A DNA stretch of 64,000 bases, taken from an uncultured Gammaproteobacteria bacterium. GTDB taxonomy: Bacteria > Patescibacteriota > Patescibacteriia > SBBC01 > CAIJZX01. Under the pieces are notes generated by a model, which was given only the letters and a program-made list of their open reading frames with translations, was not told where the DNA came from and ran no database searches. Numbering within the stretch: position 1 is the first letter of the stretch; each line of letters opens with the position of its first letter. Position numbers and translations under genes: made by a program. Positions 14,381 to 50,553 of this stretch are shown one piece after another. The stretch covers positions 376,326-440,325 of the forward strand of contig CAYNGY010000001.1 of assembly GCA_964397195.1 (NCBI GenBank), in the 5' to 3' direction.

Positions 14381-14427
14381 TACGCGGGTCGAGTCCCGAT
14401 CACGTTTAATAGCCACGGCCTAATCAT

Positions 14428-21307: not shown

Positions 21308-22332
21308 GAGGCGGTAAAAGGTTGCATGGCTAATCCTAACGCGGTTGTATAGGTAAAGGCAATATCATGAACAATTGTCGGATCGGATGACATTTGCTGG
21401 ATAATCCATGACGGTTGGACGATAACTTTTTTGTCTAAACGCGCGCCAAGCTCATGGTCAATAGCGCGAATCAGCGCGCCGGACCCATTGAGAAGAATCG
21501 TTGAAATTTCCGGCTCATTTGGGAAGTGTTCCTGATAATATGATTCGACACCGCGGACCTTCTCTGCAAGCAAATCGAGCTGTGGACTGAGAATTCGTGC
21601 GAGCAGTCCTTTTCCGCGCTCAGGATCGAGTCCAAACATCTCTTTCGCCTTCTGGGCCTGGTCGGTTGAGATGCGGAGGGCGTCGGCAATGTACTGATTT
21701 AAATCTTTCCCAGAATACCGAAGCGTCGTCGAAAACTCAACCACGCCGTCGCTGACGAGGATTAAAGATGCTCTCGTTCGGCCAAGATCTAGGACAATAT
21801 GCGCGCCAGTGCTGTCAGGTGCCAGCATCGCTCGGGCGATGGCAATCGATTCGATTTCCATGCTGACAATCTCGATTCCGGCAGAAGTGAGTGTTTCGAG
21901 ATATTGCGTGACAATGGTCTTCGGTGCGCCGCCAAACAGGATCCGTGTACCGACCTGCTTTGGACTGGCGGGGAGTTTTCGCCAATCAAACGTGACGTCA
22001 GACCAGGCGTAGGGAAGGTGTGGCGTTACCGCCTCTTGAATGGCCGCATCATTTACGGCGGTATCAGGGGGTAAGGTCACAACCTTAATAAAACTGTGCC
22101 GCTCTGGTAGGGTAACTATGGCCTGTTTGCCACGTGGTTTAGCGGCGGTCACGAGTTGTTCGAGAATGTCGCGCACCACGTCACGTTTTATAAAATCACC
22201 GTCGACGATGACGCCCACTGGTACGGGTATTTCACCGCGGACCGGTACGCGGTACCCCTTGTGGTGCCGTTCGAGGGTGACCAAGCGGATCACGGAATCG
22301 CTAATGTCGAGGCCGAATGGATGCATTGCCAT
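21304..22332 (-). CDS. pilM: Type IV pilus assembly ATPase-like protein PilM (actin fold)
   Basis: It has FGLDISDSVIRLV, and GIEIVSMEIESIAIARAM is typical of PilM. Confidence 0.8.
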   Translation of the reverse strand: MAMHPFGLDISDSVIRLVTLERHHKGYRVPVRGEIPVPVGVIVDGDFIKRDVVRDILEQLVTAAKPRGKQAIVTLPERHSFIKVVTLPPDTAVNDAAIQEAVTPHLPYAWSDVTFDWRKLPASPKQVGTRILFGGAPKTIVTQYLETLTSAGIEIVSMEIESIAIARAMLAPDSTGAHIVLDLGRTRASLILVSDGVVEFSTTLRYSGKDLNQYIADALRISTDQAQKAKEMFGLDPERGKGLLARILSPQLDLLAEKVRGVESYYQEHFPNEPEISTILLNGSGALIRAIDHELGARLDKKVIVQPSWIIQQMSSDPTIVHDIAFTYTTALGLAMQPFTAS

Positions 22333-22335
22333 GTA

Positions 22336-23550: not shown

Positions 23551-23551
23551 C

Positions 23552-28489: not shown

Positions 28490-28562
28490 TCGGACAATGC
28501 TTTATTGTACATATAGGTAAAATGGGTTGCGAGATCTGCGCATACGGATATCAGGTAAACAC

Positions 28563-31061
28563 ATGAAACAGCGCCCCGGCCTTTTCCGATTTGTTCGATA
28601 TCGAATGATGGCCGATCGTCGAACAATCGTTTTATCGTATGCAACAGAGGCCGCTGGGCAGACGGTGACGTTCAGTGAGCGCATTGTCCTGCCCTCACCA
28701 ATACCACGCGCCGTTCCACCGCGCCTCCTGCGCATCATACTGGAGTCGGTCCATTTAGCCATCGGCGTCAGTTATTACAAAGCCAGCTGCCCAGGAAAAA
28801 TCGTCCATCCGTATCACTTGACGCAAGCCCAGGCCGCATATTGGACGGATTTGTACCATCATGGCCTCGGTGAGCTATGCTATCGAAATGCTATTAACAT
28901 CAGCGCGCTTGCTGCATTCCCGGTAACTACTACTCGATCCCCGCAACCAGTTGTTTGGCCGCGCGCCCGTCGGGCTCTCGTCGGTATTGGCGGCGGGAAA
29001 GATTCGATCGTGGTCGCCGAGGAATTACGCCGGATGGGGTGGGACTTTTCGACTTTCTCGGTGGGAAATGGGCGCCACACAATTATTGATGAGGTCATGA
29101 AGGTCGTCGGCCGGCCGCGTCTGCATCTGGTACGGCAACTGGATAAAAAAGTTTTAGAACCACCACCGAGTTGGATTACCGGACATGTCCCGGTCTCGGC
29201 TATTTTTGCCTGGCTCGGCGTTCTCTGCGCCGCCGTATACGATTACCAATACTTCTTGGTCGGAAATGAGGCCAGTAGCGATAGCGGGAATGTTCGATGG
29301 CGAGGGCATGAAATTAACCACCAATGGAGCAAATCAACCGCCTTTGAGGTTGCAACGCGGTCCTATCTCCGGTCGTGGGTGACGAGCGACGTTGACTACG
29401 CGTCACCGCTGCGGTCTTTTTCCGAACTTCGGGTGATACAACTTTTTACCGAGTATAAAAAGTATTGGCATGTTTTCAGTAGCTGCAACCGACAATACGT
29501 TCAACAGAAACGGTCGACCAGTACGAGATGGTGTGGTGCGTGCCCAAAGTGCGCCTTCGTTTTCCTGGGGCTAGCGGCGTTTCTGCCGTTGTCCAAGGCG
29601 GTACGTATTATCGGACGGAACATGTTGGATGCGGAGGAGATGATTCCGCTCTACCAAGAGCTCCTTGGGTTTACCGCGGTAAAACCATTTGAATGTGTCG
29701 GGACCTTTGAGGAAACGCGAGTGGCGTTTTCCCGTCTGGCCGCGGCGCACCCACGGCTAGCGGTTATCCGAGCCTTGGCTGGACGGGTCCGGCGTCAGCA
29801 CATAGACGAAAGAAGCACGTTGCGGGCGAAACCAGCGGCGAGTACGCCCCCGCCATTCATCTTACTCGGCATGCGAGAAATAGTGATTGTGGGGTATGCC
29901 GTCGAGGGGCGAGCGACGCACGCGTGGCTTCGCCGGAACTACCCATGGATCCATCTGGCCATCGTTGACCGTCGAGATGGGCCGAAATATCTGGCCCAGC
30001 TTGATCGTTATGATTTGGCCGTAAAAACCGCCGGCATGCGCGACATCATTCCGATTGGATATACGACCGCGACGAATCTCTTCTTTGGGCATGTCACTCA
30101 GCAGGTTGTGGGCGTTACTGGCACCAAAGGAAAAAGCACCACCGCTTCGCTGATTGCTCATATTCTGAAGACCGCCGGACAGCCAACGGCGTTGCTCGGG
30201 AATATCGGGTCCCCGATGTTGGCATGGCTGGACCGCTATCATCGCCCAAGAACCGTTGTCGTGCTGGAACTCTCGAGCTTCCAACTGGCGGAACTGCGCA
30301 CCTCGCCACAGATTGCCGTGTGGCTCAATGTGTTTCCTGAGCACCTCGATGTGCATGGTAGTCTCCAAGCCTATATCGAAGCCAAGCGGCATATTTGTGC
30401 CTTTCAACGGCCACAGGATACGTTTGTCTACAACCCTCGCGATCGTCATGTGCGTGGTGCCCGGTCTCGTACCAATGGCCAGGCTATCCCATTTCCACAC
30501 ACATCGCCCGTGGCACTTGAGAAAACCCAATTACGGGGGGATCACTTTTTGGATGCGATCGGCGCCGCATCAACAGTTGGGCGGCTGCTCGGTGTCAACA
30601 AACAGGCGATCGAGCGCGCCCTGAGAACTTTTCAGCCGCTGCCACACCGGCTTCAAGTCATCGGGACCGTGGCTGGCGTTCAATACGTCGATGACGCCAT
30701 TTCAACAACACCACAGTCAACCATCGCGGCTTTGGCGGCTTTCCCGCAGACCGCCACGCTGTTTCTTGGGGGCACCGATCGCGGGTATGATTTTCGGGAA
30801 CTTGAGCGGGCCATTCACCGTTCGCGGGTGCAACAAGTGGTTCTCTTCCCCGACACCGGGAAGCGCATGCTCAAACAGACATCCGGATTACGCGTGCTAC
30901 ACACCCGTTCAATGCGGCAGGCCGTTGCATTTGCCGCCCGATACGCTCAGCCGGGGACAACCTGCCTCTTGTCGTGCGCTTCCCCGAGTTATTCACTCTG
31001 GAAGAACTTCGAGGTCAAGGGGGATGAGTTTCAACAATGCGTTAAGGCACTTTGTCCATGA
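28563..31061 (+). CDS. murD: Fusion protein: N-terminal PP-loop ATP-pyrophosphatase-like domain + UDP-N-acetylmuramoylalanine-glutamate ligase MurD
   Basis: The track ORF is 28527..31061 from a TTG start. The ATG at 28563 has a good SD (AGGT, 6 nt upstream). The N-terminal part of about 440 aa has VGIGGGKDS (SGGxDS-like PP-loop) and a CGACPKC motif. The C-terminal part starts at MREIVIVGYAVEGRA and has GVTGTKGKSTT. It is clear MurD, in the canonical dcw position between mraY and ftsW. There is no stop or frameshift between the two parts. Confidence 0.8.
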   Translation: MKQRPGLFRFVRYRMMADRRTIVLSYATEAAGQTVTFSERIVLPSPIPRAVPPRLLRIILESVHLAIGVSYYKASCPGKIVHPYHLTQAQAAYWTDLYHHGLGELCYRNAINISALAAFPVTTTRSPQPVVWPRARRALVGIGGGKDSIVVAEELRRMGWDFSTFSVGNGRHTIIDEVMKVVGRPRLHLVRQLDKKVLEPPPSWITGHVPVSAIFAWLGVLCAAVYDYQYFLVGNEASSDSGNVRWRGHEINHQWSKSTAFEVATRSYLRSWVTSDVDYASPLRSFSELRVIQLFTEYKKYWHVFSSCNRQYVQQKRSTSTRWCGACPKCAFVFLGLAAFLPLSKAVRIIGRNMLDAEEMIPLYQELLGFTAVKPFECVGTFEETRVAFSRLAAAHPRLAVIRALAGRVRRQHIDERSTLRAKPAASTPPPFILLGMREIVIVGYAVEGRATHAWLRRNYPWIHLAIVDRRDGPKYLAQLDRYDLAVKTAGMRDIIPIGYTTATNLFFGHVTQQVVGVTGTKGKSTTASLIAHILKTAGQPTALLGNIGSPMLAWLDRYHRPRTVVVLELSSFQLAELRTSPQIAVWLNVFPEHLDVHGSLQAYIEAKRHICAFQRPQDTFVYNPRDRHVRGARSRTNGQAIPFPHTSPVALEKTQLRGDHFLDAIGAASTVGRLLGVNKQAIERALRTFQPLPHRLQVIGTVAGVQYVDDAISTTPQSTIAALAAFPQTATLFLGGTDRGYDFRELERAIHRSRVQQVVLFPDTGKRMLKQTSGLRVLHTRSMRQAVAFAARYAQPGTTCLLSCASPSYSLWKNFEVKGDEFQQCVKALCP

Positions 31062-37790: not shown

Positions 37791-40490
37791 ATGAGCATCC
37801 TCGGGAAACTCTTTGGAGACGCAAATACGAAGGCCGTCAAAGATCTTCAGCCACTGGTTGATGCAATCAACGCCGAAAAAGCGGCCGCGGCCGCCCGCAG
37901 CCTCGATCAGATCAAGGCGCGGATGCTCGAACTGCGCACCCAGGTGGGCGGCGATTCGAAGCACCTCGACGCGATCCTGCCGGAGGTTTTTGCCTTAACG
38001 CGTGAAGCCTCGAAGCGCACCATCGGTCTCGAGCATTTTGATGTCCAAATGATCGGCGGGATTACGCTCCACCGCGGTCAAATTTCGGAAATGCGAACTG
38101 GCGAAGGAAAAACTCTTGTCGCCACGACTGCCGTGGCGCTCAACGCCCTAACCGGGCTCGGCGTGCACGTCGTGACGGTCAACGATTACCTCGCCCGGCG
38201 CGACGCTGGCTGGATGGGCGCGGTCTACAATGCGCTCGGTCTAACGGTCGGGATAATCATTCATGAGCAGGCGTTCCAATACGATGCCGACTTTACGAAT
38301 CCTGATGCCCTCGAAGAACGCACACTCCATCTGCGCCCGATTGAACGACAACAAGCCTACGCCTGCGATATCACCTACGGGACGAATAACGAGTTTGGTT
38401 TCGACTACCTCCGCGACAACATGATTCCGGACCAGAAATATATGGTCCAACGGCCGTTTTATTACGCCATTGTCGATGAAGTAGACTCCATTTTAATCGA
38501 CGAAGCGCGAACGCCATTAATTATTTCCGCGCCAGCTGAAGAATCAACCGAACGATACCGACAATTCGCCCAAATTGTGACCACGCTCGATGCGGCGACC
38601 GACTATGCCATTGACGAAAAGCTACGCGCCGCAACGCTGACCGAGTCCGGGATCACCAAAGTTGAGAAGGCGCTTCATCTCGATAACTTGTATGCCGCCG
38701 GGGGCGTTGAGCTCGTTCATCATCTCGAGCAGGCGCTCAAAGCGCGCACCTTGTTCACCCTTGATAAAGATTATGTCGTCAAAGACGGAGAAGTTATCAT
38801 CGTTGATGAATTTACCGGCCGCTTGATGCATGGGCGACGCTACTCCGAAGGGCTCCACCAGGCGATCGAAGCGAAAGAAGGGCTCGACGTCAAACAAGAA
38901 AATTTGACCATGGCCACGGTTACCTTGCAAAACCTGTTTCGGATGTACCCGAAATTAGCTGGCATGACCGGGACCGCTGCCTCTGAAGCCGAAGAATTCC
39001 ACAAAATTTACAACCTTGACGTGACAGTCATCCCGACGAATCGGCCCATGGTGCGCAAAGACGCGCAGGATAGCGTCTACAAAAACGAGCAGGGGAAATT
39101 CATGGCCGTCGTCCGGGAAATCAAACGTCGTCAGGAATCCGGTCAGCCGGTACTCGTCGGCACGATTTCGATTGAGAAGAATGAACTGTTGTCTGAACTA
39201 TTGACCCGTGAGGGCGTGACCCACGAAGTCCTGAACGCCAAGAACCACGAACGCGAAGCGCAGATTATCGCCCAAGCTGGTCGCCCGGGTGCGGTCACCT
39301 TGGCCACGAACATCGCCGGTCGCGGCGTTGACATCATCCTCGGCGGGACGCCTCCCACGCCCGAGGCGGCGGAAAAAGCCAAGCAGGCCGGCGGTCTCCA
39401 CGTCCTCGGTACCGAGCGACATGAGTCACGACGTATCGATAACCAACTTCGTGGACGTTCCGGACGGCAAGGTGACCCGGGGTCAAGTCAGTTCTTTGTG
39501 TCGATGGAAGATGACCTGATGCGCATCTTCGGGTCTGATCGGATGAAATCGCTGATGGATCGGATGGGTGTGCCGGATGATATGCCAATTGAATCGGGGA
39601 TCGTTAGCCGCTCGATTGAGCAAGCCCAGAAAAAAGTCGAAGGTCACAACTTTGATACTCGGAAGCATCTCGTCGAATACGATGACGTCATGAATAAACA
39701 CCGCGAGGTCATCTACAAACGGCGACGGGAGATTCTCGTCGGGCCCGCGGCGGACATGATTCCGAAAGTGAAAGAGATAGTCGAAAAAGAAATTCATCAC
39801 GTCGTGGCCTTCCACACCGCCGCCGAGCACGTCCACGACTGGGACCTCGACGCGGTCTACAACGCTATCAACGCCATGTGCGTCTTGGAAGTGAAGGATC
39901 GGTTAGCGCTGGAGGAGCTGAAAGGTGGTGACGGCCTGTCCGACGCGGCGGCCCGAACGAAAATTATCGAACGCCTCGTCGCCCACGCCAATGCCTCGCT
40001 TGATGATCTTGCTAGCCAGGCCCCAGACCCGGCAGTTTTCCCCGAGGTGGTGCGGAATGTGATGTTACGAACGATCGATCAGCTCTGGGTCGAGCACCTC
40101 GAGCACGTCGATCGTTTGCGTGAGGGGATTGGGCTTCGTGGCTACGCCCAGCGCGAACCGCTGGTGGAATACAAGAAAGAAGCCTACGAACTCTTCTCCC
40201 GCTTAATTCACTCGATCAATACCCAGATCGCCAACACGATCTTTAAGGTCACCATTGCCCCAGCCTCACAAATGGCCGCCCAACCGAAACAGAATCTGCA
40301 ACTCTCCGCCCCGCAGAAAGAAGCGACGGAAAACCGCTCGTCCATCGGACTCAAATTCGACAACCCGATCGTGCATGGCGTCGATATTTCGAAAGTTGGC
40401 CGAAATGACGAGTGCCCGTGCGGTTCAGGCAAGAAGTTCAAGAAATGCTACTTAGCAAACGACCCCGGCTGTAAACTGCGCCAGGGCTAA
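37791..40490 (+). CDS. secA: Preprotein translocase ATPase SecA
   Basis: It is 899 aa with the DEAD motor motifs. The C-terminal zinc finger is CPCGSGKKFKKCY. Confidence 0.95.
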   Translation: MSILGKLFGDANTKAVKDLQPLVDAINAEKAAAAARSLDQIKARMLELRTQVGGDSKHLDAILPEVFALTREASKRTIGLEHFDVQMIGGITLHRGQISEMRTGEGKTLVATTAVALNALTGLGVHVVTVNDYLARRDAGWMGAVYNALGLTVGIIIHEQAFQYDADFTNPDALEERTLHLRPIERQQAYACDITYGTNNEFGFDYLRDNMIPDQKYMVQRPFYYAIVDEVDSILIDEARTPLIISAPAEESTERYRQFAQIVTTLDAATDYAIDEKLRAATLTESGITKVEKALHLDNLYAAGGVELVHHLEQALKARTLFTLDKDYVVKDGEVIIVDEFTGRLMHGRRYSEGLHQAIEAKEGLDVKQENLTMATVTLQNLFRMYPKLAGMTGTAASEAEEFHKIYNLDVTVIPTNRPMVRKDAQDSVYKNEQGKFMAVVREIKRRQESGQPVLVGTISIEKNELLSELLTREGVTHEVLNAKNHEREAQIIAQAGRPGAVTLATNIAGRGVDIILGGTPPTPEAAEKAKQAGGLHVLGTERHESRRIDNQLRGRSGRQGDPGSSQFFVSMEDDLMRIFGSDRMKSLMDRMGVPDDMPIESGIVSRSIEQAQKKVEGHNFDTRKHLVEYDDVMNKHREVIYKRRREILVGPAADMIPKVKEIVEKEIHHVVAFHTAAEHVHDWDLDAVYNAINAMCVLEVKDRLALEELKGGDGLSDAAARTKIIERLVAHANASLDDLASQAPDPAVFPEVVRNVMLRTIDQLWVEHLEHVDRLREGIGLRGYAQREPLVEYKKEAYELFSRLIHSINTQIANTIFKVTIAPASQMAAQPKQNLQLSAPQKEATENRSSIGLKFDNPIVHGVDISKVGRNDECPCGSGKKFKKCYLANDPGCKLRQG

Positions 40491-40502
40491 GATTCAACAG
40501 TG

Positions 40503-40529
40503 GTCACGGTATTGGTCGTGACTTTTTTT
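40503..40529 (+). terminator. Intrinsic terminator after secA
   Basis: The hairpin is GTCACG-8 nt-CGTGAC followed by TTTTTTT. Confidence 0.7.
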
Positions 40530-40571
40530 CGTACTTCGAGTAGGATGGTGAGGAACTAACACATATTACGT

Positions 40572-41213
40572 ATGCGCATTCTCCTCGGTTTTCTCATCGT
40601 CCTGATCGGGCTGCAGATGTTTTTTGGCTCGGTCGGATTTCATAATTTCCCAACCATCGACATCTGGTGGCCGGTGATTTTGATTGCCATCGGCTTCCTA
40701 AGCTGGCGCTCAAATCCACGCCTCTACACCTGGCCGTTTTTCATGATCGCGATTGGGATCATCTTCCTGCTGACGAATCTGAATGTCATTCCGGGGAATG
40801 GCTGGAGCTATCTCTGGCCGGTGGTCCTGATTCTCGGTGGCGCACAGATTATGTTTGGTCGATCCGGTGGTATGCAGTCAGACGCGCACCAGGGAAACGG
40901 GCGCCATATTTTCGCGGCCTTCAGCGGCCGGAACGAAACGGTGGTTGGTCAGTTCAGCGCCGGTCAGGTCTCAGCTTGGTTTGGTGGGGTCAAATATGAT
41001 CTCCGACAGGCCGATCTCGCCGCGCAATCAACACTGGAAATTATGGCCGCCTTCGGTGGTGTCGAAATTCTCGTGCCGAGCAATGTGCAGGTGATTGTGA
41101 ATGTCACGCCGCTCTTTGGTGGGACGGATAACAAATCCCATGCGGATCCTACGAGTGCAAAAACGATTACCATTTCCGGGACCGCGCTGTTCGGAGGCGT
41201 TGATATCAAATAA
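40572..41213 (+). CDS. LiaF-like / DUF2154-type membrane protein (putative cell-envelope stress module)
   Basis: It has an N-terminal 4-TM region and a C-terminal repetitive beta-rich domain with FGGV repeats (AAFGGVEIL, PLFGGTD, ALFGGVDIK). Confidence 0.55.
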   Translation: MRILLGFLIVLIGLQMFFGSVGFHNFPTIDIWWPVILIAIGFLSWRSNPRLYTWPFFMIAIGIIFLLTNLNVIPGNGWSYLWPVVLILGGAQIMFGRSGGMQSDAHQGNGRHIFAAFSGRNETVVGQFSAGQVSAWFGGVKYDLRQADLAAQSTLEIMAAFGGVEILVPSNVQVIVNVTPLFGGTDNKSHADPTSAKTITISGTALFGGVDIK

Positions 41214-41230
41214 TTCATTCGTTGTCTCTG

Positions 41231-41262
41231 ACGCGTGGCCCGCTGGGCCGCGCGTTTTGTTG
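41231..41262 (+). terminator. Possible intrinsic terminator
   Basis: An 11-bp stem (ACGCGTGGCCC / GGGCCGCGCGT, one mismatch) with loop gct is followed by ttttgttg. Confidence 0.45.
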
Positions 41263-41315
41263 TCCACTTGCGCCCGCGTCGGGGAGTGGTATCGTAGAGA
41301 AGAAAGGAACGTGAT

Positions 41316-41825
41316 ATGAAACCATTCACACCGTATCTCGAAAAACTCCCGAAACGAGTCGTGCTGCAAATCACGACACACGGCGACCCAAACATCATCA
41401 CCGGTCCGGCCATGCAAGCATTGTACGGGACGGCCTATGGCACGAAGTTCAAAATCTACAAACCGAAAAAAATGAAAATGGACATCGGCCCGGTTTCAGC
41501 CTATTGGCCGGATGCGCATCTCAAGCCGAAGTCAAAATGGACCGGGATTTGGAATCTACAAATTTCTGATTTTGTGACCGCCAAGGATTTGATCCAAAAA
41601 AACCCGGACACGCCGGTCAAACGCGTCGCGGTACGGGCCGGAACATATGCGTGCATTTTGCATATCGGCACCTACGCGTCTGAGACGAAGACGATTAAAG
41701 CGCTCCATGAGTACATGAAAGCGGAGAAGTTAAAAATTGTTGGTGAGCACGAAGAGGTATACCTGAGTCGACCCGGTCCGAAGGCTAAAACAATTATTCG
41801 ATACGCCGTCAGCAAGAAAACATAG
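41316..41825 (+). CDS. GyrI-like small-molecule-binding domain protein
   Basis: It is about 170 aa. The C-terminus EEVYLSRPGPKAKTIIRYAV resembles GyrI/AraC effector-binding domains. Confidence 0.5.
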   Translation: MKPFTPYLEKLPKRVVLQITTHGDPNIITGPAMQALYGTAYGTKFKIYKPKKMKMDIGPVSAYWPDAHLKPKSKWTGIWNLQISDFVTAKDLIQKNPDTPVKRVAVRAGTYACILHIGTYASETKTIKALHEYMKAEKLKIVGEHEEVYLSRPGPKAKTIIRYAVSKKT

Positions 41826-41979
41826 CCTCGCCGTGATGTAGCCATCTCTTCTTCGAGCTCAGTGGAGAAGGGGACAGCGTGTGCAGGGGAAGACGTGGCG
41901 GCCGCCGAAAACGGACCAGTCTTGAGTGAATATTTCTAGTTCCTATCGATCGAGTCTGAGTCTATATTCCGACATGACG

Positions 41980-42008
41980 TTGACAAAAGCGCAATTTTCT
42001 GATACAAT
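41980..42008 (+). promoter_or_regulatory. Consensus sigma70 promoter
   Basis: The sequence is TTGACA, a 17-nt spacer (aaagcgcaattttctga), then TACAAT. It lies about 190 nt upstream of the 42200 ATG. Confidence 0.65.
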
Positions 42009-42080
42009 ACAATATGTTTAGGCCTACATTAGCCTAAAAACGCCCCTTCGGAAAACGCAAAAAGCAAAAATAAAACGCAA

Positions 42081-42184
42081 GCAGAGGGCATGGGAACTTC
42101 GTGTGGTGGTGAGATCACGACCATAGGAAGTTCCCACGCATCTTCAACGGAAATATCCATTTTCAATGGAGTGCGGCCCTCTGC
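42081..42184 (+). ncRNA. Structured 5' leader RNA (three-way junction), candidate cis-regulatory element
   Basis: An outer stem pairs GCAGAGGGC (42081-89) with GCCCTCTGC (42176-84). It encloses hairpin GGGAACTTC/GAAGTTCCC (42092-100/42127-35), which has a 26-nt loop. It also encloses a second hairpin CCATT-ttca-ATGG closed by CGCA/TGCG. It ends 15 nt before the start codon, which lacks an SD. Confidence 0.45.
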
Positions 42185-42199
42185 TTCCACTCTTTCAAT

Positions 42200-43582
42200 A
42201 TGAAACATTCAATCTGGGCTATCGCGGCTGTGGTCGCGATCTGTGCTGTGGTTCGTATACCACACGCCTCTGCGGCGACGTATAGTCGTACCTCGGAGCT
42301 TGTTATTCCCGCGACCGGAACCTCGGTCACGCTTTTTGATGGACGATTCACCGGGGGTGCATCGATCGCCGCGGCAGATATTACCGGTGATGGGGTTGAT
42401 GAATATATTGTTGGAGCCGGGCAGGGCAGTACGCCGATTGTCCAAGTCCTCGATGCGAATGGCGAGGTAATAACGTCATGGATGCCCTACAAAGAAAATT
42501 TTCGTGGCGGGGTGAATGTTGCCGCCGGCGATCTTGATGGTGACGGCCAAGCCGAGATCGTCACCGCGCCGCTGAGTGATGCCCCGGCCACTATTCGCGT
42601 CTTCAAAAATACCGGTGGAATTATTAGTTCATTTCGGGCTTTTGACAGTCGCTATCATGAAGGGGCGAACATCGCCGTGCTCGAGGCCATGCCTGATTCG
42701 CCGGGGCGAATTATTGTCAGCACCCGAGGCTTGCGAAAGAATGAGGCGCTCGTCTATGCGACGAACGGAAATTTGGTGCGCCGAATTTCCACCGACGTCG
42801 GGCGTGATCACCAAACCGGAGTGACGGTTGCCGCGGGATGGAGCGATGCCTGGCACGAACGAATCATTGTCTTCGGTGCGGGACGTGATAGTGCGCCGCG
42901 GGTTATGGTCTACGGACTAGATTCAAAAAAAGTCTTGCTGACCTGGATGGCATTTAAAGGAACGATGACCACTGGCGTCTCGATTAGCTATCGAAACAAT
43001 GTCGTGGCAGTCGCTCCGCTCGGCCTTGGTGTTCCGACTATTCGAACGTTCACCGCGATCGGGGATCGGATCGGCGATGTGGACGTCTTCGAGTCGACCT
43101 TCCGTGGCGGGGTGAACGTGGCCCTGTCTGCCGCTGGGTCTGGGGTGACGGTGGCGGCGGTCCCGAACAAAGCCAATCCAAGCCAGGCGAAAGTCAATGG
43201 CAAGAAAATCCTGGTTAACCTCAAGAAACAAGAATTATACCTCGTGGAAAATGGGACGGTCATTTCCACCCGACGCATCTCATCTGGCAAGTGGGGAACC
43301 CCGACGCCGGTCGGAACATTTAAGACGCGAAATAAAATAACGGTCGCGTATTCGAAACCATACAAGTTGTACATGGAATACTGGATGGCCATTACCGCCG
43401 ACGGGAAGTACGGGTTGCATTCGTTACCATATTGGAAAACAAAGAACGGAAAACTTTACGAAGGCGCCGCCCATATTGGAACACCCGTATCGCATGGGTG
43501 TATCCGCCAAACGGTGGCCGAGGCCAAGTCACTCTATGATTGGGCGCCGGTTGGCACCCCCGTCGTCATCAGCAAGGGGTAG
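42200..43582 (+). CDS. Secreted FG-GAP repeat protein with C-terminal L,D-transpeptidase (YkuD) domain
   Basis: It has a signal peptide MKHSIWAIAAVVAICAVV...ASA and FG-GAP/VCBS-like repeats (GDLDGDGQAEIV, DITGDGVDEYIV). The C-terminal catalytic region has SHGCIRQ (the HGC of LDTs). Confidence 0.8.
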   Translation: MKHSIWAIAAVVAICAVVRIPHASAATYSRTSELVIPATGTSVTLFDGRFTGGASIAAADITGDGVDEYIVGAGQGSTPIVQVLDANGEVITSWMPYKENFRGGVNVAAGDLDGDGQAEIVTAPLSDAPATIRVFKNTGGIISSFRAFDSRYHEGANIAVLEAMPDSPGRIIVSTRGLRKNEALVYATNGNLVRRISTDVGRDHQTGVTVAAGWSDAWHERIIVFGAGRDSAPRVMVYGLDSKKVLLTWMAFKGTMTTGVSISYRNNVVAVAPLGLGVPTIRTFTAIGDRIGDVDVFESTFRGGVNVALSAAGSGVTVAAVPNKANPSQAKVNGKKILVNLKKQELYLVENGTVISTRRISSGKWGTPTPVGTFKTRNKITVAYSKPYKLYMEYWMAITADGKYGLHSLPYWKTKNGKLYEGAAHIGTPVSHGCIRQTVAEAKSLYDWAPVGTPVVISKG

Positions 43583-43643
43583 CCTTGCCTGAGGGCGCCC
43601 TGCACGCTATACTGGGGACTCTGAATGTCTCGATATTTTTCGC

Positions 43644-45281
43644 ATGCGTCGTCGTAATGTATGGCTGGCCATGGCTGGCATCGTCCTCCTGACCGCCACT
43701 GTCGGATTCGTCGATTGGCCACACAGTTGGTCTTTAAACTGGGGGCCGCTCAAGCGTGATTTGAACTTGCGGCTTGGTTTAGACCTGCGAGGCGGGACGA
43801 GTTTGGTGTATCAGGCTGATGTGACGAATGTGCCCGATGCTGACCGCGGATCGGCCCTCGATGGCGTCCGCGATGTTATTGAGCGACGCGTGAACGCCTT
43901 TGGAGTCTCCGAGCCGGTTGTGCAGACGAGCCAGGTCGGTAGTCAGTATCGTGTCAGCGTTGACCTCGCCGGAATCACCGATATCTCCCAAGCAATTAAA
44001 TTGATCGGGGAAACGCCACTCCTTGAGTTCCGTGAAGCGAAGGGACTGAGTGATACTGAGGCCAAGACGAAGGCCGATGATGTTTTAAAGAAGGTCAACA
44101 CACCAAAAGCGGACTTTGGCGCCTTAGCCAAGGAATTTTCCGATGACGCCGGTTCGAAGTCGAACGGCGGTGACTTGGGGTGGGCGAAAAAAGGCACCTT
44201 TGTGACCGAGTTCGATGCGGCCCTCTTTGATCAGTTGAAGGACGGACAAGTGACGAGAGCGCCGATCAAGACGCAATTCGGCTACCATATCATCAAACGA
44301 ATTGCGACGCGGGAAACCGATCAAGATGGGACGAAGGTGACCGAGATTCACGCCGCCCATATTTTAATCATGACCGCGGATGGTGCGGCTGCGGCCGGGC
44401 AGTACACAACGACCGAATTAACCGGTAAGCAACTGAAGCGGGCCGATGTGAGCTTCGACCAACAAACCGGTCAGCCGGAAGTCGCCCTGACCTTTAGTAG
44501 CGAAGGGGCTAAGTTGTTCCAGGACATTACGAAGCGGAACATCGGAAAGATCCTCGCGATTTACCTTGATGGGTCGCCGATCAGTACACCCCAAGTGAAC
44601 CAGGAGATTGTTGGTGGCCAGGCCGTAATCAATGGGAACTTTACAGTTCAAGAAGTGAAGCAGTTGGCTCAGCGCCTGAATGCCGGGGCCTTACCCGTGC
44701 CGATCACCTTGATGAGCCAGCAAAATATCGGAGCCAGTCTCGGCAAAGAATCCGTCGAGCGGAGTGTTGCGGCCGGAATTATCGGTCTGGCGCTGGTTGC
44801 CCTCTTCATGATCTTAATGTACCGACTCCCGGGCGTAATCGCGGTAGTAGCGCTTGGCGTCTATTCCTTGTTAGTCTTAGCCATATTCAAGCTCTGGCCG
44901 GTCACCCTGACCTTGGCTGGGATCGCCGGGTATGTGCTGTCGATCGGTATGGCAGTTGATGCCAACATCCTCGTCTTTGAACGGACGAAAGAGGAATTGC
45001 GGGATGGCCGGCCGCTATTAAGTGCGATTGAAGAGGGCTTCCGACGTGCCTGGCTTTCGATTCGCGACTCGAATGTATCGAGTCTCATCACCTGTCTGAT
45101 TCTGATTTGGTTTGGTTCGAGTTTGATTAAAGGATTCGCCGTCACACTCGCCCTCGGTATTTTGGTTTCGATGTTCACCGCCTTGACTGTCAGTCGGACA
45201 TTCTTGCGAGTATCGGTTAGCCACTGGATGGAGAAGCATCTCTGGTTATTCGGACATGGGCTGACCAAGAAGGAATACTAG
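43644..45281 (+). CDS. secD: Protein translocase subunit SecD with embedded parvulin-type PPIase module
   Basis: SecD motifs (LGLDLRGGTSLVYQ) and the C-terminal 6-TM core are present. Between them lies ADFGALAKEFSDDAGSKSNGGDLGWAKKGTFVTEFDAALF...PIKTQFGYHIIKR, a clear PpiC/parvulin signature, followed by HAAHILI. Confidence 0.85.
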   Translation: MRRRNVWLAMAGIVLLTATVGFVDWPHSWSLNWGPLKRDLNLRLGLDLRGGTSLVYQADVTNVPDADRGSALDGVRDVIERRVNAFGVSEPVVQTSQVGSQYRVSVDLAGITDISQAIKLIGETPLLEFREAKGLSDTEAKTKADDVLKKVNTPKADFGALAKEFSDDAGSKSNGGDLGWAKKGTFVTEFDAALFDQLKDGQVTRAPIKTQFGYHIIKRIATRETDQDGTKVTEIHAAHILIMTADGAAAAGQYTTTELTGKQLKRADVSFDQQTGQPEVALTFSSEGAKLFQDITKRNIGKILAIYLDGSPISTPQVNQEIVGGQAVINGNFTVQEVKQLAQRLNAGALPVPITLMSQQNIGASLGKESVERSVAAGIIGLALVALFMILMYRLPGVIAVVALGVYSLLVLAIFKLWPVTLTLAGIAGYVLSIGMAVDANILVFERTKEELRDGRPLLSAIEEGFRRAWLSIRDSNVSSLITCLILIWFGSSLIKGFAVTLALGILVSMFTALTVSRTFLRVSVSHWMEKHLWLFGHGLTKKEY

Positions 45282-45282
45282 T

Positions 45283-46191
45283 ATGCTGCGAATTATTCAA
45301 AAGCGAAACTGGCTCTTCGGCTTCTCGGCGGTAGTCCTCATCCCGGGAATCGTCGCCTTGGCCGTTTTCGGTCTTAAGCTTGGGCTCGACTTCACCGGTG
45401 GCACAAAGCTGACGGCTACCTTCAGCCAAATCCGTCCAGATGGTCCGGCGGTGGCGGAAAAAATCAAGACCCTGAATATTGGCGGCGTCACCGCGCAGAC
45501 AGCAGGGGAGAAGGAGATGATTATCCGGCTGGCCACCATCACGGATGAACAGCGACAGCAAGTAAATTCGACCCTCTCGAGCGCCTATCCTGGCTACAGC
45601 GAAACAGCCTTTGATTCCGTTGGACCAACGATTGGTGCGGAGCTCCTCCGCCGCGCCATGTACGCCATCATTCTTGTGCTGGCCGCGATCGTGTTGTATA
45701 TCAGCTGGGCATTCCGAAAAGTCGGAATTGGTCCGGTGCCGGCGTGGGTCTATGGTGTATCGGCGATCATCGCCCTTGTCCACGACCTCTTCGTCGTTAT
45801 TGGCATCTTCGCTATCCTCGGTCACTACGCCGGGATCGAAGTTGATTCGTTATTCGTGACTGCGCTCTTAACCGTCCTCGGGTTCTCGGTTCATGATACC
45901 ATCGTCGTTTTCGATCGCGTTCGCGAGCGTCTCATTCGTGGGCAGGAGTCGTCCTTTGAGGAAACCGTCAACGTCAGCTTAAACCAAACGCTTGTTCGTT
46001 CGCTGGCGACGTCGTTTACCACACTTTTGGTTCTAGCGGCGCTCTATTTCTTCGGCGGTCAGTCAATCCAGAACTTTACGCTCGCCTTGTTGGTCGGTAT
46101 TGCTAGCGGGACGTATTCGTCAATCTTCGTGGCGACCCCATTATTGGTGGTTTACGATGAGTGGCGAAAACGACGTCATGGGCGTCGATAG
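45283..46191 (+). CDS. secF: Protein translocase subunit SecF
   Basis: It has the SecF architecture and motifs (FSVHDTIVVFDRVRE). Confidence 0.9.
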   Translation: MLRIIQKRNWLFGFSAVVLIPGIVALAVFGLKLGLDFTGGTKLTATFSQIRPDGPAVAEKIKTLNIGGVTAQTAGEKEMIIRLATITDEQRQQVNSTLSSAYPGYSETAFDSVGPTIGAELLRRAMYAIILVLAAIVLYISWAFRKVGIGPVPAWVYGVSAIIALVHDLFVVIGIFAILGHYAGIEVDSLFVTALLTVLGFSVHDTIVVFDRVRERLIRGQESSFEETVNVSLNQTLVRSLATSFTTLLVLAALYFFGGQSIQNFTLALLVGIASGTYSSIFVATPLLVVYDEWRKRRHGRR

Positions 46192-46253
46192 GGTTGGGGC
46201 GTAGGGCTGGCCGGGCACCGATTTCGGCCGTTATTTTATTTCACCCCAGATTC

Positions 46254-46282
46254 TTGACACCCCGGCAAATATGTGCTATATT
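46254..46282 (+). promoter_or_regulatory. Consensus sigma70 promoter
   Basis: The sequence is TTGACA, a 17-nt spacer, then TATATT. It lies about 20 nt upstream of the ATG at 46305. Confidence 0.6.
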
Positions 46283-46304
46283 ATGGATGTACGTAGATCC
46301 GGAT

Positions 46305-47459
46305 ATGGAAGACACTTCAACTAGCGGATCGATCCTCGATCGGATCATTAGCAGCCAACAGACCGAAACCCTCGAACATTTCGACCCGGTTGCGGTTGTG
46401 GCTGAATTACTGAAAACGCTGACCACGAAGGAGGCGGACATTGTTCGTCGTCGGTTTGGTTTGGGCCAGCAACCGGCCGAGACCCTCGAGACGATTGGTG
46501 CGTCATATAACGTCACCCGCGAACGGGTCCGTCAGATTCAACGTTGGGCGGTTGATCGATTACGTAAATCAGATGCGGCTAAGCGCCATTTACGGAGCGT
46601 CGACATGTTGCTTCAACAGTTATTCGAAGAGCACGGTGGCCTGATGCCGGACGATGAATTATTCGCCGCGTTGACCGCGCACGCTAATCGAGATTCACAA
46701 ACGCAAGCGGCCACGACGTTCATTTTAGAAGAATTGTTAGCGGATAAGTTCACGAAGGTTGAAACGAAAGAGTATCAGCCGTTTTGGAAACCGACCTACG
46801 TCACGATTGCCAATCTCCCGCTCGTCATTAATGTCGCGGTTCAGCTCCTCTCAACGGCCGGTAAGCCGCTGCCGAGTGCTGATGTGATTGATCAGTTATT
46901 GCATGCTTCGGAACTCAGTACACAATCCCTGACCTCGACGATTGTCCAAACATATTTAAATGTTTCTACGGCGATTGATAAAAATCCGTACGGCGAGTAC
47001 GGACTTCGGTCATGGGGGAGTATTGTCCCGAAACGGATGAACGATAAGATACTGATGATACTGCGAAAGGCTGGTCAGCCGATGCACTTTGTTGAGATTA
47101 CAAAAAAGATTAATGAGATTGGCTTCGATCGCCGCAAAGCCTATCCGCCGACGGTCCATAATGAGTTGATTTTGAACCCCGAGTACGTTTTGGTCGGTCG
47201 CGGAATCTACGCCCTGAAGGAATGGGGATACAAACCAGGTGTGGTCGCGGATGTGATTGCGGCCTTAATTACCGAACGTGGACCGATGGATCGCGACGCG
47301 ATCGTTGATGAAGTGTTAAAACAGCGAATGGTGAAAAAAAATACAATTCACCTCGCTCTCACAAACAAACAGCGGTTTGCCCGATTACCGGATGGCCGGT
47401 ACGCGTTGGCGAGTGACCGTCCGGCTCAGCCGGCGGAAACCGCGCCAAGCGCCCAATGA
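46305..47459 (+). CDS. DNA-binding protein with sigma-70 region 4 HTH (N-terminal) and HARE-HTH-like domain (C-terminal)
   Basis: The track ORF is 46161..47459. The start is trimmed to MEDTSTS, downstream of the promoter. EADIVRRRFGLGQQPAETLETIGASYNVTRERVRQIQRWAVDRLRK is sigma70 region 4.2-like. The C-terminal YVLVGRGIYALKEWGY resembles the HARE-HTH (RNAP delta N-domain) motif. Confidence 0.6.
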   Translation: MEDTSTSGSILDRIISSQQTETLEHFDPVAVVAELLKTLTTKEADIVRRRFGLGQQPAETLETIGASYNVTRERVRQIQRWAVDRLRKSDAAKRHLRSVDMLLQQLFEEHGGLMPDDELFAALTAHANRDSQTQAATTFILEELLADKFTKVETKEYQPFWKPTYVTIANLPLVINVAVQLLSTAGKPLPSADVIDQLLHASELSTQSLTSTIVQTYLNVSTAIDKNPYGEYGLRSWGSIVPKRMNDKILMILRKAGQPMHFVEITKKINEIGFDRRKAYPPTVHNELILNPEYVLVGRGIYALKEWGYKPGVVADVIAALITERGPMDRDAIVDEVLKQRMVKKNTIHLALTNKQRFARLPDGRYALASDRPAQPAETAPSAQ

Positions 47460-48814
47460 CGGATTTTCTCGTTATACCCACCTTCGATAATCCGCTCGCG
47501 TCCATGTGGTGGATCCTAAGCCATGGCGGTTTTATTATTCTCCTCTGGGCGATCGGGTACGGCATTTGGCTTGTCTATCTCGACTATATCCAGACCGAGT
47601 TCGCAAAAAAAACAAAATACACCTTGCTGGCCATTGATGTGCCGAAAGAAAACGAACAAACGCCAAAAGCGGTTGAACACATCTTCAGCCATTTTCATGG
47701 GATTCAGAAAAATCCGAATGCGAAAGCGAAGTACCTCGAAGGGTTTGTTCAGCCGACAATCTCGGTCGAGCTCATCTCGATTGACGGCTACATTCAATAT
47801 CTGGTGCGGACGCCAACCGCCAGCCGGGACCTCGTTGAGGCGGCGATCTATGCCCAATACCCGAACGCTGAATTAACGGAAGTTGAAGACTACACGGAGG
47901 GTTTCAAGTCAGTTTTCCCAAATCCAGATTACAATATGTGGGGTGGGGAAATTGTTTTTACGAATGCTGATGCGTATCCGATCCGGACCTATCCTTCCTG
48001 GGAGCACAGCCTGACCCAAACCTTTCTCGACCCGATGGCGTCCCTCTTGGAAATCATGAACCGCTTACAGGCCGGTGAACAAATTTGGCTCCAGTTCGTG
48101 TTGGCCCCAACATCCGGATCTGACTTTAAGAAAAAGGGGTTAGAGGTCATTAATAAACTGATCGGCGCCAAAGCCAAGAAGAAAGTCAGCAAGCTCGAAG
48201 AATTCATGCAAGTGCCTGGAAATATTGCCCTCGGGACCTGGAATACATTGACGAACACCCTGATTACCCCGGTGGAAGCTGGCCCAGCGGCAAAAAAAGA
48301 TACCAAAGACGTCCCGAACCAGTTACAATACACGCCGCCACACGTCCGGGCGGTCGTCGAGGCGATTGGGGTTAAAATCTCGAAACTCGCTTTTGAAACC
48401 AAGTTTCGCTTCGTCTACATGGCCAAACCGGATATCTTCAACGGCAATCGGATCGCGGGCGTCCTTGGTGCGATGAAGCAGTTCGGCACCATGGATATGA
48501 ACGGCTTTAAGCCGCATAAGACCATGAAAACCGCTCGCGACTACGGATTTGTGGAGCGTCGGGTGAACCAGTTGCGTCGACTCATTCTCGCCCAATATAA
48601 ACACCGTTCCATGTCTGGTGGTAACCCAATTACCATGAACATTGAAGAGCTCGCGTCGATCTGGCACTTCCCGGTCATCACGGTCAAGGCGCCGTTGGTC
48701 CAAAAGATGGACGCCAAGCGCGGTGAGCCGCCAACATCGCTCCCGATCGGTGATTACAACCCACCGGAGTTACAAGAAGAATCTAACTTGCCGCCGAATC
48801 TACCGGTTGCCTAA
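47456..48814 (+). CDS. Hypothetical membrane-anchored protein (N-terminal TM, large cytoplasmic domain)
   Basis: It is 452 aa with a single hydrophobic helix (MWWILSHGGFIILLWAIGYGIWLVYL). No recognised domain was found. It overlaps its neighbours' starts and stops, so it is cotranscribed. Confidence 0.55.
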   Translation: MTDFLVIPTFDNPLASMWWILSHGGFIILLWAIGYGIWLVYLDYIQTEFAKKTKYTLLAIDVPKENEQTPKAVEHIFSHFHGIQKNPNAKAKYLEGFVQPTISVELISIDGYIQYLVRTPTASRDLVEAAIYAQYPNAELTEVEDYTEGFKSVFPNPDYNMWGGEIVFTNADAYPIRTYPSWEHSLTQTFLDPMASLLEIMNRLQAGEQIWLQFVLAPTSGSDFKKKGLEVINKLIGAKAKKKVSKLEEFMQVPGNIALGTWNTLTNTLITPVEAGPAAKKDTKDVPNQLQYTPPHVRAVVEAIGVKISKLAFETKFRFVYMAKPDIFNGNRIAGVLGAMKQFGTMDMNGFKPHKTMKTARDYGFVERRVNQLRRLILAQYKHRSMSGGNPITMNIEELASIWHFPVITVKAPLVQKMDAKRGEPPTSLPIGDYNPPELQEESNLPPNLPVA

Positions 48815-48816
48815 TT

Positions 48817-50553
48817 ATGCCTACGCTGACGCCACCACCACCAACCGACATTGCGGTCTTCGGCCGCACGAATTTTCGTGGGCAGTTACGACCATTTGGT
48901 ATCAAAACCGATGACCGGCGGCGTCACATGTATGTGATTGGGAAAACCGGGATGGGTAAATCGACCCTTTTAGAAAACATGATCGTCCAAGATATCCGCG
49001 CTGGTCGCGGGCTCGCGTTTGTTGATCCGCACGGCGATACCGTCGAAAAACTGTTAGACTATATCCCTTCGTACCGGATGAATGACGTGGTCTATTTTAA
49101 CCCGTCGGACGTGGACTTTCCAATCGCCTTCAACGTTTTAGAATCGATTAACGCCACGCAGCGCGCCCTGACCGCGTCCGGGCTCGTTTCTATTTTTAAG
49201 AAGATTTGGGCCGACTCGTGGGGGCCGCGATTAGAGTACATTCTCCGCAATACGATCTTGGCGCTCGTTGAGTACCCGGGCTCAACATTGCTCGGCGTGA
49301 CCCGCATGCTCGTTGATCGTGATTACCAACGGAAGGTCGTGGCGAGTCTCTCCGACCCGATCGTCAAAGCCTTTTGGCAAACAGAATTCAACGGGTACGA
49401 ACAGAAATTTCGAACGGAAGCGGTCGCACCGATTCAAAACAAAATTGGTCAATTCCTTTCCAGCTCAGTTATTCGGAATATCGTTGGTCAGCCGAAATCA
49501 ACGATCGATATGCGCGAGATTATGGATAGCGGGAAGATCTTACTCCTCAACCTGTCAAAAGGACGCATCGGTGAGGATAATGCCGCTTTACTCGGCGCCA
49601 TGATGATCACGAAAATTCAGTTGGCAGCCATGAGTCGCATCGATATTCCAGAAAAGGAACGTCGGGACTTCTTCTTGTATGTTGACGAATTCCAAAACTT
49701 TGCGACGGAATCATTTGCCAACATTTTATCCGAGGCCCGAAAATACCACCTCGATCTGATCATGGCTCACCAGTATATCGAACAGCTGGACGAGACGGTT
49801 CGCGCCGCGGTATTCGGCAACGTCGGGACGATCATTACCTTCCGTGTCGGCGCAACGGACGCCGAATTCTTGGCAAAAGAATACATGCCGATCTTTACGG
49901 AAACAGATCTCGTCAATCTGACAAAATTCGATATGTATCTGAAGCTGATGATTGATGGGGTTGCGTCCGAACCGTTTTCCGCCAGCGGGCTGCCGCCGGT
50001 ACTGGCGCAGGCGCCCGAAGGTCTTGCAGAAACGGTCGCCAAGGTATCTCGTGAACGGTATGCGAAAACCCGAGAAATAGTCGAAGAAAAAATTACCCGC
50101 TGGTCAGGCGTCGAGGAAACGATGATGGCCACAGCGGCTGCGGAAAATCGTTTCCAGCGTCGTTCCGATCAGACTCGTGACGAAGAGCCCGTTGTGTACG
50201 AACGCGCCGCACCAGTAGTAACGGAAAATATTCCCGAGCCAATCTCCCTCTCGCAGGCACTTCAAGCGGAGACGCCACGCGCCCCGCGGCCAAACAATGA
50301 TCGATCACCGCGACCACCACAGCGTCCGGACAGTAGTGGGCGCCCGCGACGTCATCGTTCTCGATCCGCCGGAAACCGCCGCCCACCACCATCAGGAGCA
50401 CCGTCACCCGACTCGCGCATGTCTTTGTCATCGTTGCCGCCGCGCCCGGAAAAACGGGTTGAGCCGCCAGTCCAAACCCCGCCACCCATTACACCTCCGC
50501 CAGCGCCAACTACCGGTACGACACTAACGCCCGGACAGGTCGTCAAGATATAA
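48817..50553 (+). CDS. FtsK/HerA/VirD4-superfamily P-loop ATPase with disordered Pro/Arg-rich C-tail
   Basis: It has Walker A YVIGKTGMGKST, Walker B FLYVDEFQNF, and the downstream ARKYHLDLIMAHQYIEQLDETVRAAVFGNVGTIITF motif typical of DUF87/TraG-D_C ATPases. The C-terminal roughly 120 aa are low complexity (PRPPQRP..., PPPITPPPAP). Confidence 0.65.
   Translation: MPTLTPPPPTDIAVFGRTNFRGQLRPFGIKTDDRRRHMYVIGKTGMGKSTLLENMIVQDIRAGRGLAFVDPHGDTVEKLLDYIPSYRMNDVVYFNPSDVDFPIAFNVLESINATQRALTASGLVSIFKKIWADSWGPRLEYILRNTILALVEYPGSTLLGVTRMLVDRDYQRKVVASLSDPIVKAFWQTEFNGYEQKFRTEAVAPIQNKIGQFLSSSVIRNIVGQPKSTIDMREIMDSGKILLLNLSKGRIGEDNAALLGAMMITKIQLAAMSRIDIPEKERRDFFLYVDEFQNFATESFANILSEARKYHLDLIMAHQYIEQLDETVRAAVFGNVGTIITFRVGATDAEFLAKEYMPIFTETDLVNLTKFDMYLKLMIDGVASEPFSASGLPPVLAQAPEGLAETVAKVSRERYAKTREIVEEKITRWSGVEETMMATAAAENRFQRRSDQTRDEEPVVYERAAPVVTENIPEPISLSQALQAETPRAPRPNNDRSPRPPQRPDSSGRPRRHRSRSAGNRRPPPSGAPSPDSRMSLSSLPPRPEKRVEPPVQTPPPITPPPAPTTGTTLTPGQVVKI

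Follow-up and report, generated by a model that had tools for sequence, protein, structure and literature searches.

In a 64,000-nucleotide stretch of Patescibacteria DNA (positions 376,326–440,325 of contig CAYNGY010000001.1, assembly GCA_964397195.1; here called the window) we analysed an operon of three forward-strand genes, g1 (46287–47459; 390 residues, or 384 from an alternative start at 46305), g2 (47456–48814; 452 residues) and g3 (48817–50553; 578 residues). We consider it probable that g2 and g3 together build a two-piece ring ATPase that is anchored in the membrane and belongs to the VirB4/VirD4 (type IV secretion) lineage, the genes being part of the chromosomal core set of Patescibacteria. 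One part of this reading is well supported, namely that g2, a DUF8128 protein, is the membrane anchor, supplied in trans, of g3, a type IV coupling protein (T4CP; TrwB/VirD4)-like P-loop ATPase. It rests on the adjacency of the two genes in 56 of 72 loci, on natural g2+g3 fusions with an N-terminal transmembrane helix and on the structural match of g2 to TrwK/VirB4, evidence that bears out the anchor in trans proposed in a first-pass annotation of the window made from its sequence alone. The region is a Kerfeldbacteria-like stretch of Patescibacteria core genome, all named homologs of g1, g2 and g3 coming from Kerfeldbacteria or other Patescibacteria, and the module is neither a conjugative nor a defence element, nor one acquired recently.

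The sequence of g3 places it with the coupling proteins. Against Pfam it matches TrwB_AAD_bind (PF10412; E 2.4e-10, 40.3 bits against a cut-off of 20.5) and TraG-D_C (PF12696; 23.9 bits, cut-off 22), as well as DUF87 and T4SS-DNA_transf, and its profile aligns by hhalign with residues 118–393 of TrwB (probability 94.7%, E 6e-8) and not significantly with TrwK. A sequence search of solved structures returned only the P-loop segment of TrwB. The ATPase core (48904–50106; residues 30–430) contains Walker A (GKTGMGKS, 48940–48963) and Walker B (FFLYVDE, 49669–49689) motifs, with about 200 columns invariant across 39 homologs. Both motifs, together with ARKYHLDL and FGNVGTIITF, had been picked out in the first-pass annotation and all are present in the translation. 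Its description of a short N terminus with neither a HAS-barrel nor a membrane region of its own is likewise accurate; about 30 residues precede Walker A, and no transmembrane segment was found, no 19-residue window having a hydropathy above 1.6. The tail (50107–50550) is variable, net basic and rich in Pro, Arg and Ser, much as described; the picture of a disordered tail needs refining in that, across the same 39 homologs, it holds a conserved ISLxEAL in its middle (S477, L478 and A481 nearly invariant) and PGQVV[KH]x at the extreme C terminus (PGQVVKI in g3, 50530–50550).

With the type IV coupling proteins TrwB of R388, VirD4, TraD and TraG, the core of g3 shares TrwB_AAD_bind, TraG-D_C and T4SS-DNA_transf, and its long variable tail with a conserved end peptide is like that of TraD, which binds TraM. 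Unlike these proteins, g3 has no transmembrane domain of its own, the separate g2 supplying a single helix, and its tail is basic rather than acidic. Moreover, g3 is chromosomal, phylum-wide and highly conserved and does not lie beside relaxase or mating-pair-formation genes, none of which was seen among the window open reading frames (ORFs) scanned or in two further loci centred on g3 homologs. Other assignments for g3 were rejected. As a VirB4-type ATPase it scores 20.1 bits on TIGR00929, for which the cut-off is 643, and the TrwK alignment is the non-significant one given above; in pairwise BLAST with pGO1 proteins TrsE matches over the P-loop region only and TrsK not significantly. As an FtsK/SpoIIIE protein it reaches 15 bits on PF01580 (cut-off 24), again over the P-loop region only. 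A HerA-type assignment fails on the roughly 30 residues before Walker A, which leave no HAS-barrel, on partial PADLOC HerA matches and on the lack of a partner gene.

The first-pass annotation took g2 to be a 452-residue protein with one N-terminal transmembrane segment and no known domain. Hydropathy does give a single N-terminal helix (47504–47581; about residues 17–42), predicted to run N-out/C-in. The claim about domains falls, as a protein identical to g2 carries a precomputed Pfam match to PF26449, which is DUF8128, and most homologs do likewise; UniRef names one of them 'DUF8128 domain-containing protein'. Our local copies of Pfam and NCBIfam gave no match to g2, the former of which does not include the PF26449 model. 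With 3071 cluster representatives (50% identity, E<=1e-3) the family is a large one, and in the literature searched we found no paper mentioning DUF8128. In the structural model of g2, which is confident (predicted local distance difference test (pLDDT) 86, predicted template modelling score (pTM) 0.81), a long helix spans residues 13–52, with a Lys-rich flank after the transmembrane segment. The DUF8128 domain that follows (47612–48745) is predicted to be cytoplasmic. Beyond a variable linker the protein ends in a P-P-N-L-P motif (48791–48805), each of P446, N448, L449 and P450 being kept by at least 90% of 90 homologs. Both g2 (PxNLP) and g3 (PGQVV[KH]x) thus end in short conserved peptides past variable, probably disordered linkers.

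The likeness of g2 to VirB4 comes from this model. In a Foldseek search of the PDB the top 14 matches are all TrwK/VirB4 chains. EccE3, a membrane protein of the type VII secretion system ESX-3, is the second-best structural match, and the ESX-3 complex contains the FtsK-like ATPase EccC. Among BFVD models the best match is gp156 of Bacillus phage G. The resemblance is structural only, sequence comparisons of g2 with TrwK and with the N terminus of phage G gp155 showing no similarity and a sequence search of solved structures giving no match. TrsD, reported to resemble the N-terminal portion of VirB4 and to be abundant in Patescibacteria, was tried as a homolog of g2 and rejected, the hhalign comparison with pGO1 TrsD not being significant. 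Because g2 contains no P-loop, and because a g2-like part precedes the ATPase in fused relatives, we infer that the match lies in the N-terminal domain of TrwK; the g2 domain would correspond to the VirB4 N-terminal domain. What g2-g3 has in common with VirB4 proteins (TrwK of R388, TrsD+TrsE of pGO1, VirB3–VirB4 fusions) is the overall plan, in which a P-loop ATPase comes after an N-terminal part associated with the membrane. The differences from them are that the two parts are split over g2 and g3, that the ATPase is TrwB-like and not VirB4-like by sequence, that g2 resembles none of TrwK, TrsD and gp155 in sequence, and that no VirB3, VirB6 or VirB8 gene lies near the operon.

Proteins in which g2- and g3-like parts form one chain occur both in Patescibacteria and in phages. 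A single PHROG profile, phrog_5156 (824 positions), matches g2 at positions 26–289 and g3 at 408–805. At a Magasanikbacteria locus (L071, 17938–20502, reverse strand) an 854-residue protein combines an N-terminal transmembrane segment, a DUF8128-like region, which is complete (hhalign 99.1%, E 1e-18), and a T4CP-like ATPase. In such a single chain DUF8128 and the ATPase lie on one and the same membrane side, which supports the N-out/C-in topology predicted for g2. In phage G gp156 (825 residues) an N-terminal region resembling DUF8128 (hhalign 97%) is joined to an ATPase part like g3 (29% identity, E 6e-46). This protein and its phage relatives share with the operon the DUF8128-like region and the g3-like ATPase, and differ from g2 and g3 in being fused and phage-encoded and, for gp156 and the homolog in phage vB_BceS-M2, in lacking the N-terminal transmembrane helix. 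The fused gene of vB_BceS-M2 belongs to the early region and immediately precedes genes for recombination and replication. Searching 50,697 phage records with g2 by tblastn returned nothing, and among the 2.9 million viral contigs of IMG/VR there was one marginal match only.

Some further observations concern these relatives. The Magasanikbacteria locus also has a split g2, which follows secDF without an adjacent g3, while the fused paralog lies 7 kb away beside dnaX; a split g2 together with a fused paralog fits the roughly two T4CP homologues per genome of the literature. In phage G (L081, 1220–5362) gp155, a VirB4-type ATPase (AAA_10/P-loop_TraG), stands in tandem with the fused gp156, and the N-terminal regions of both structurally resemble the g2 model. 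Genes like g3 occur in about 50 records of Bacillus-group phages, where they are often wrongly annotated 'lipid A export permease MsbA'.

For gene order we compared 80 loci that contain g2 homologs, each GTDB species being represented by one genome, and counted neighbours over the loci with enough sequence (72 or 61). The g3 gene lies directly downstream of g2 in 56 of 72 loci and g1 directly upstream in 38 of 72; in 35 of 61, secF lies upstream of the g2 homolog at a distance of no more than 2.6 kb. Where there is enough flank on both sides, the order is secDF-g1-g2-g3 in 13 loci, secDF-g2-g3 in another 13 and g1-g2-g3 in 12. The two loci looked up from g3 homologs read YkuD-secD-secF-g1-g2-g3 (on CP060223.1, a record of 1.08 Mb) and secD-secF-g1-g2-g3. 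Synteny of the block secD-secF-(g1)-g2-g3 extends over several classes. Median tblastn identity across loci is highest for g3 (65%), followed by secD (53%), secF (47%), g2 (40%) and g1 (38%). That the genes form a conserved unit, for which the first-pass annotation had asked for a neighbourhood analysis, is upheld by these counts. It had also placed the operon between secDF and a glycosylation module; secDF does lie upstream and a GT2 glycosyltransferase gene downstream, the secDF neighbour being conserved in many relatives and not incidental.

Variants of this arrangement were seen in passing. Eight loci (L051, L056, L057, L063, L068, L070, L073 and L074, at about 10001–17000) have g1-g2 and no g3 within 10 kb. 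Behind g2 come ORFs of about 400 and 800–965 residues in L051, L057 and L063, with one of about 650 residues in addition in L051 and L063; in L051, the only one of these scanned, the ORFs encode a GT4 glycosyltransferase, a DUF4012 protein and a DUF11 surface protein. Several loci (L006, L021, L022, L024, L039 and others) show typical Patescibacteria gene order in GTDB-representative records titled 'uncultured Gammaproteobacteria', 'Binatia' or 'Acutalibacteraceae', and these assemblies are probably mislabelled or mis-binned.

Coupling-protein homologues have been surveyed across the phylum. In 3,035 Patescibacteria genomes, 5,713 VirD4-type homologues were reported in 2,918 (96%), only 148 of them near virB4; VirB4 itself was present in 2,417 genomes, and only 109 relaxases were counted in all (Quinonero-Coronel et al. 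2025, PMC12102498). Exaptation of the coupling-protein genes was suggested there and no partner gene described (PMC12102498). The g3 protein belongs to these 'orphan T4CP' homologues. A prevalence of 96% (PMC12102498) means that the ATPase is in part what the first-pass annotation had named as grounds against its own reading, a recognised housekeeping protein of the lineage. Its other statement, that the arrangement is not a described system, stands for the literature searched, in which we found no paper describing it. With DUF8128 the orphan ATPase of the 2025 survey (PMC12102498) gains a partner, a conserved operon context and a structural rationale, in that the partner best matches VirB4 and supplies the membrane anchor that the ATPase lacks. 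The domain combination may also bear on the kinship of VirB4-type and VirD4-type ATPases. Patescibacteria, which live on other cells, account for much of bacterial diversity, and most of their conserved genes have no assigned role.

A mechanism can be proposed on this basis. Sitting N-out/C-in in the membrane, g2 would dock a g3 hexamer at the inner membrane face, as the VirB4 N-terminal domain carries its ATPase domain, and ATP hydrolysis by g3 would recruit or push a macromolecular substrate. TrwB-type motors are DNA-dependent ATPases, and the phage homolog lies beside recombination and replication genes; on these grounds DNA or nucleoprotein is our guess for the substrate. The conserved C-terminal peptides, PxNLP in g2 and PGQVVK in g3, may serve as docking motifs for partners, and g1, often linked to g2-g3, would be co-transcribed with them.

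The pair can be tied to genes with transposon-insertion sequencing (Tn-seq) data in the genetically tractable Southlakia epibionticum, which makes the question directly testable. SEML1_0294 of this organism (349 residues; Sigma70_r4, HARE-HTH (helix-turn-helix) and winged domains) lies directly upstream of SEML1_0293 on the same strand (Wang et al. 2023, PMC10633639 Tables S1 and S2). SEML1_0293 (921 residues) has TrwB_AAD_bind at 402–719 (PMC10633639), a start that leaves an N-terminal extension of 360–400 residues. Both are flagged as core, Patescibacteria-enriched families (PMC10633639). The Southlakia pair thus shares with the window a Sigma70_r4 + HARE-HTH gene directly before a T4CP-like ATPase gene on the same strand; unlike the window, it has anchor and ATPase in one 921-residue protein and no secDF neighbour. 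By Tn-seq SEML1_0294 is essential and SEML1_0293 was called non-essential, the normalised reads of the latter dropping from 5817 to 2940 and then 1372, with no drop for SEML1_0292 and SEML1_0295 (PMC10633639).

Several points weigh against the two-piece motor proposed here. SEML1_0293 and SEML1_0294 are matched to the window genes as orthologs by domain architecture and gene order, not by sequence, and a second T4CP-like paralog of Southlakia, SEML1_0142, is essential (PMC10633639). In 16 of 72 loci g3 is not beside g2, and in about half of the loci g1 is absent from the g2 neighbourhood. The loci sampled were those that matched a Kerfeldbacteria query best, and classes close to it are therefore over-represented in the counts. 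The interaction of g2 with g3, their oligomeric state and the ATPase activity of g3 are predictions from sequence and models, and DNA as the substrate, our best guess, is argued by analogy. Two observations on the paralog may be added: SEML1_0142 is a 1019-residue protein with its P-loop region at 381–800 and no assigned domain in the N-terminal 380 residues, and it is preceded by a gene for an essential 139-residue hypothetical protein (SEML1_0140–0142; PMC10633639 Table S1). The paralog may likewise belong to the fused family.

The alternative that survives best, an unlikely one in our estimate, is that g2-g3 is the missing coupling protein of the chromosomal type IV secretion system (T4SS) of Patescibacteria, encoded away from the virB4 cluster. 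The VirB4-like domain of g2 would then dock the g3 ring into the inner-membrane complex of the T4SS, feeding it protein or DNA substrates destined for the host cell. The VirB4 N-terminal domain contacts VirB3 and VirB8, which suits such a docking role, as do the TrwB-like sequence of g3 and the best match of the g2 model to TrwK/VirB4. Patescibacteria T4SS clusters, moreover, have no recognisable coupling protein, the Southlakia cluster (SEML1_0006–0019), whose genes are essential, being a case in point (PMC10633639), and T4CP homologues are encoded elsewhere in nearly all genomes (PMC12102498). The distribution and the genetics speak against this reading, however: T4CP homologues occur in 2,918 genomes against 2,417 for VirB4 (of 3,035), and the T4SS genes of Southlakia are essential while the fused gene beside the g1-like gene is not. 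Nor was any T4SS gene seen among the window ORFs scanned or in the two g3-centred loci.

Distinctly unlikely, in our judgement, is a bolder form of the motor proposal, in which DUF8128 and the T4CP-like ATPase, a VirB4-like front joined to a VirD4-type motor, would constitute a self-contained, T4SS-independent translocation machine, specific to Patescibacteria and near-universal among them, that transports DNA, nucleoprotein or protein between an episymbiont cell and its environment. Essential g1 would then be a lineage-specific RNA-polymerase-associated factor coupled to it physically or through regulation, for example via PGQVVK.

It is still less probable that g2-g3 imports environmental or host DNA together with competence or type IV pilus genes. 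TrwB, the closest characterised relative, is a DNA-dependent ATPase, g3 has a net-basic tail, and the window also contains type IV pilus genes; those genes are, however, more than 20 kb away, and the loci inspected show no linkage to comEC or comF. DNA import by a T4CP-type motor would, to our knowledge, be without precedent. Natural competence and a lack of nucleotide synthesis are described for Patescibacteria (PMC12857230), but deletion of comEC in Southlakia abolishes competence with viability kept, so DNA uptake already has a known route.

The defence reading, raised in the first-pass annotation, and the mobile-element reading are poorly supported, and neither withstands the finding that these are phylum-wide core genes in a syntenic core-genome context. 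An anti-phage defence or conflict system of the HerA, MADS or MZA kind is very improbable: HARE-HTH domains do occur in restriction systems, according to the Pfam family name, and PADLOC gives g3–mad8 (E 2e-17), weak g3–HerA and g1–MzaA (E 3e-11) matches, but these span only the generic P-loop and sigma region 4 domains, g2 has no PADLOC match and no other MADS, MZA or HerA-partner gene is present. Furthermore, the genes are near-universal in the phylum and fixed in their syntenic core context, g3 exceeds SecD in conservation, and Southlakia requires its g1-like gene. Hardly credible, lastly, is a remnant of a conjugative or integrated element or prophage, for although T4CP-like ATPases are typical of conjugative elements and Bacillus phages carry fused homologs, we noticed neither a relaxase, integrase or VirB4 gene nor a repeat boundary, the flanks have a similar GC content, gene order is conserved across classes, the 2.9 million viral contigs gave one marginal match and 3,035 genomes hold only 109 relaxases (PMC12102498).

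The first gene of the operon, g1, annotated as a 'sigma factor-like HTH DNA-binding protein', has 4166 homologs, from Patescibacteria wherever named. Its matches to Pfam are Sigma70_r4 (E 2e-12), in agreement with the sigma-70 region-4.2-like HTH proposed near its N terminus, and HARE-HTH (PF05066; E 4e-8). Region 4 is complete (4.1 and 4.2; 46386–46568) and carries the recognition-helix residues TRERxRQ, with T71, R72, E73, R74, R76 and Q77 invariant among 27 homologs; we take these to be the residues by which E. coli sigma-70 contacts the -35 element. In the AlphaFold model (pLDDT 85.8) region 4 is followed by a long helix and then four winged-helix units, of which HARE-HTH (47037–47216) is the third and, in the same 27 homologs, the best-conserved stretch of the protein. 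The HARE-HTH motif of the first-pass annotation is thus present, though not at the C-terminal end where it had been placed. The model gives this unit helices at 245–256, 262–272 and 281–290 and strands at 294–296 and 301–304.

Neither of the known proteins that g1 recalls accounts for it. Of the sigma-factor regions g1 matches only Sigma70_r4, with no region 2 or 3, and a sigma-factor assignment was rejected because NCBIfam sigma models match, far below their cut-offs, over only their C-terminal 60–90 positions. With the delta subunit of Firmicutes RNA polymerase (RpoE) g1 shares a HARE-HTH like the delta N-terminal domain; that assignment was also rejected, as TIGR04567 scores 34.5 bits against a cut-off of 42 and, unlike in delta, HARE-HTH is internal, followed by another winged helix in a set of four, with no acidic tail. 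Most likely g1 is a DNA-binding or RNA-polymerase-binding factor with an essential transcription role of its own, and its role for the motor most likely at most accessory or regulatory. The idea of g1 as no more than a DNA-binding arm for the motor loses ground in Southlakia, where the g1-like gene is essential and the adjoining fused ATPase gene is not (PMC10633639 Table S1).

The operon is set off from secF by a terminator-like hairpin with a T-rich run (46208–46240, forward strand, from a consensus scan); the hairpin itself (46208–46230) has an 8-bp stem with five GC pairs and is followed by TTATTTTATT. Downstream of it lies a predicted sigma-70-type promoter (46254–46282), with TTGACA at 46254–46259, a 17-nucleotide spacer, TATATT at 46277–46282 and a TG extension. 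This is the consensus promoter claimed in the first-pass annotation and, by consensus scan, the sole 11/12 match in the 8.3 kb between 43400 and 51700. The same annotation had all three genes overlapping, which is right for g1 and g2, where stop and start share ATGA, and not for g2 and g3, which are 2 nucleotides apart (TAA-tt-ATG). GC content of the operon is the same as in its flanks, with no anomaly, and no Rfam family or tRNA was found in the window.

Upstream of the operon lie secA, a liaF-like gene, a YkuD-type transpeptidase gene, secD (43644–45281) and secF (45283–46191), the last two identified, both on the forward strand, from precomputed Pfam families on an identical contig. Downstream are the GT2 glycosyltransferase gene, a methyltransferase gene and genes for membrane proteins; mur and type IV pilus genes lie farther off in the window. 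No VirB4, relaxase or integrase gene was found among the window ORFs scanned, as the first-pass annotation had said, while its statement that pilin genes are lacking too has to give way to pilB, pilC, pilM and pilN genes at 20.7–25.3 kb. These belong to a reverse-strand cluster (20247–25276) of pilB (T2SSE with MshEN), pilC (T2SSF), pilM, a weak pilN-like ORF and an unassigned 172-residue ORF. An 844-residue ORF (28527–31061) has Mur ligase domains confined to its C-terminal 320 residues, and either carries a long N-terminal extension without annotation or has a TTG start called too far upstream. Sec genes are unusually dense just upstream of the operon, secA, secD and secF being packed into 37791–46191 (less than 8.5 kb) with liaF-like, GyrI-like and YkuD/FG-GAP genes between them. 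The window SecD contains an internal parvulin-type peptidyl-prolyl isomerase domain (Rotamase/Rotamase_3); SecD with an internal rotamase also occurs in two other Patescibacteria loci and resembles a foldase fused to a Sec accessory subunit.

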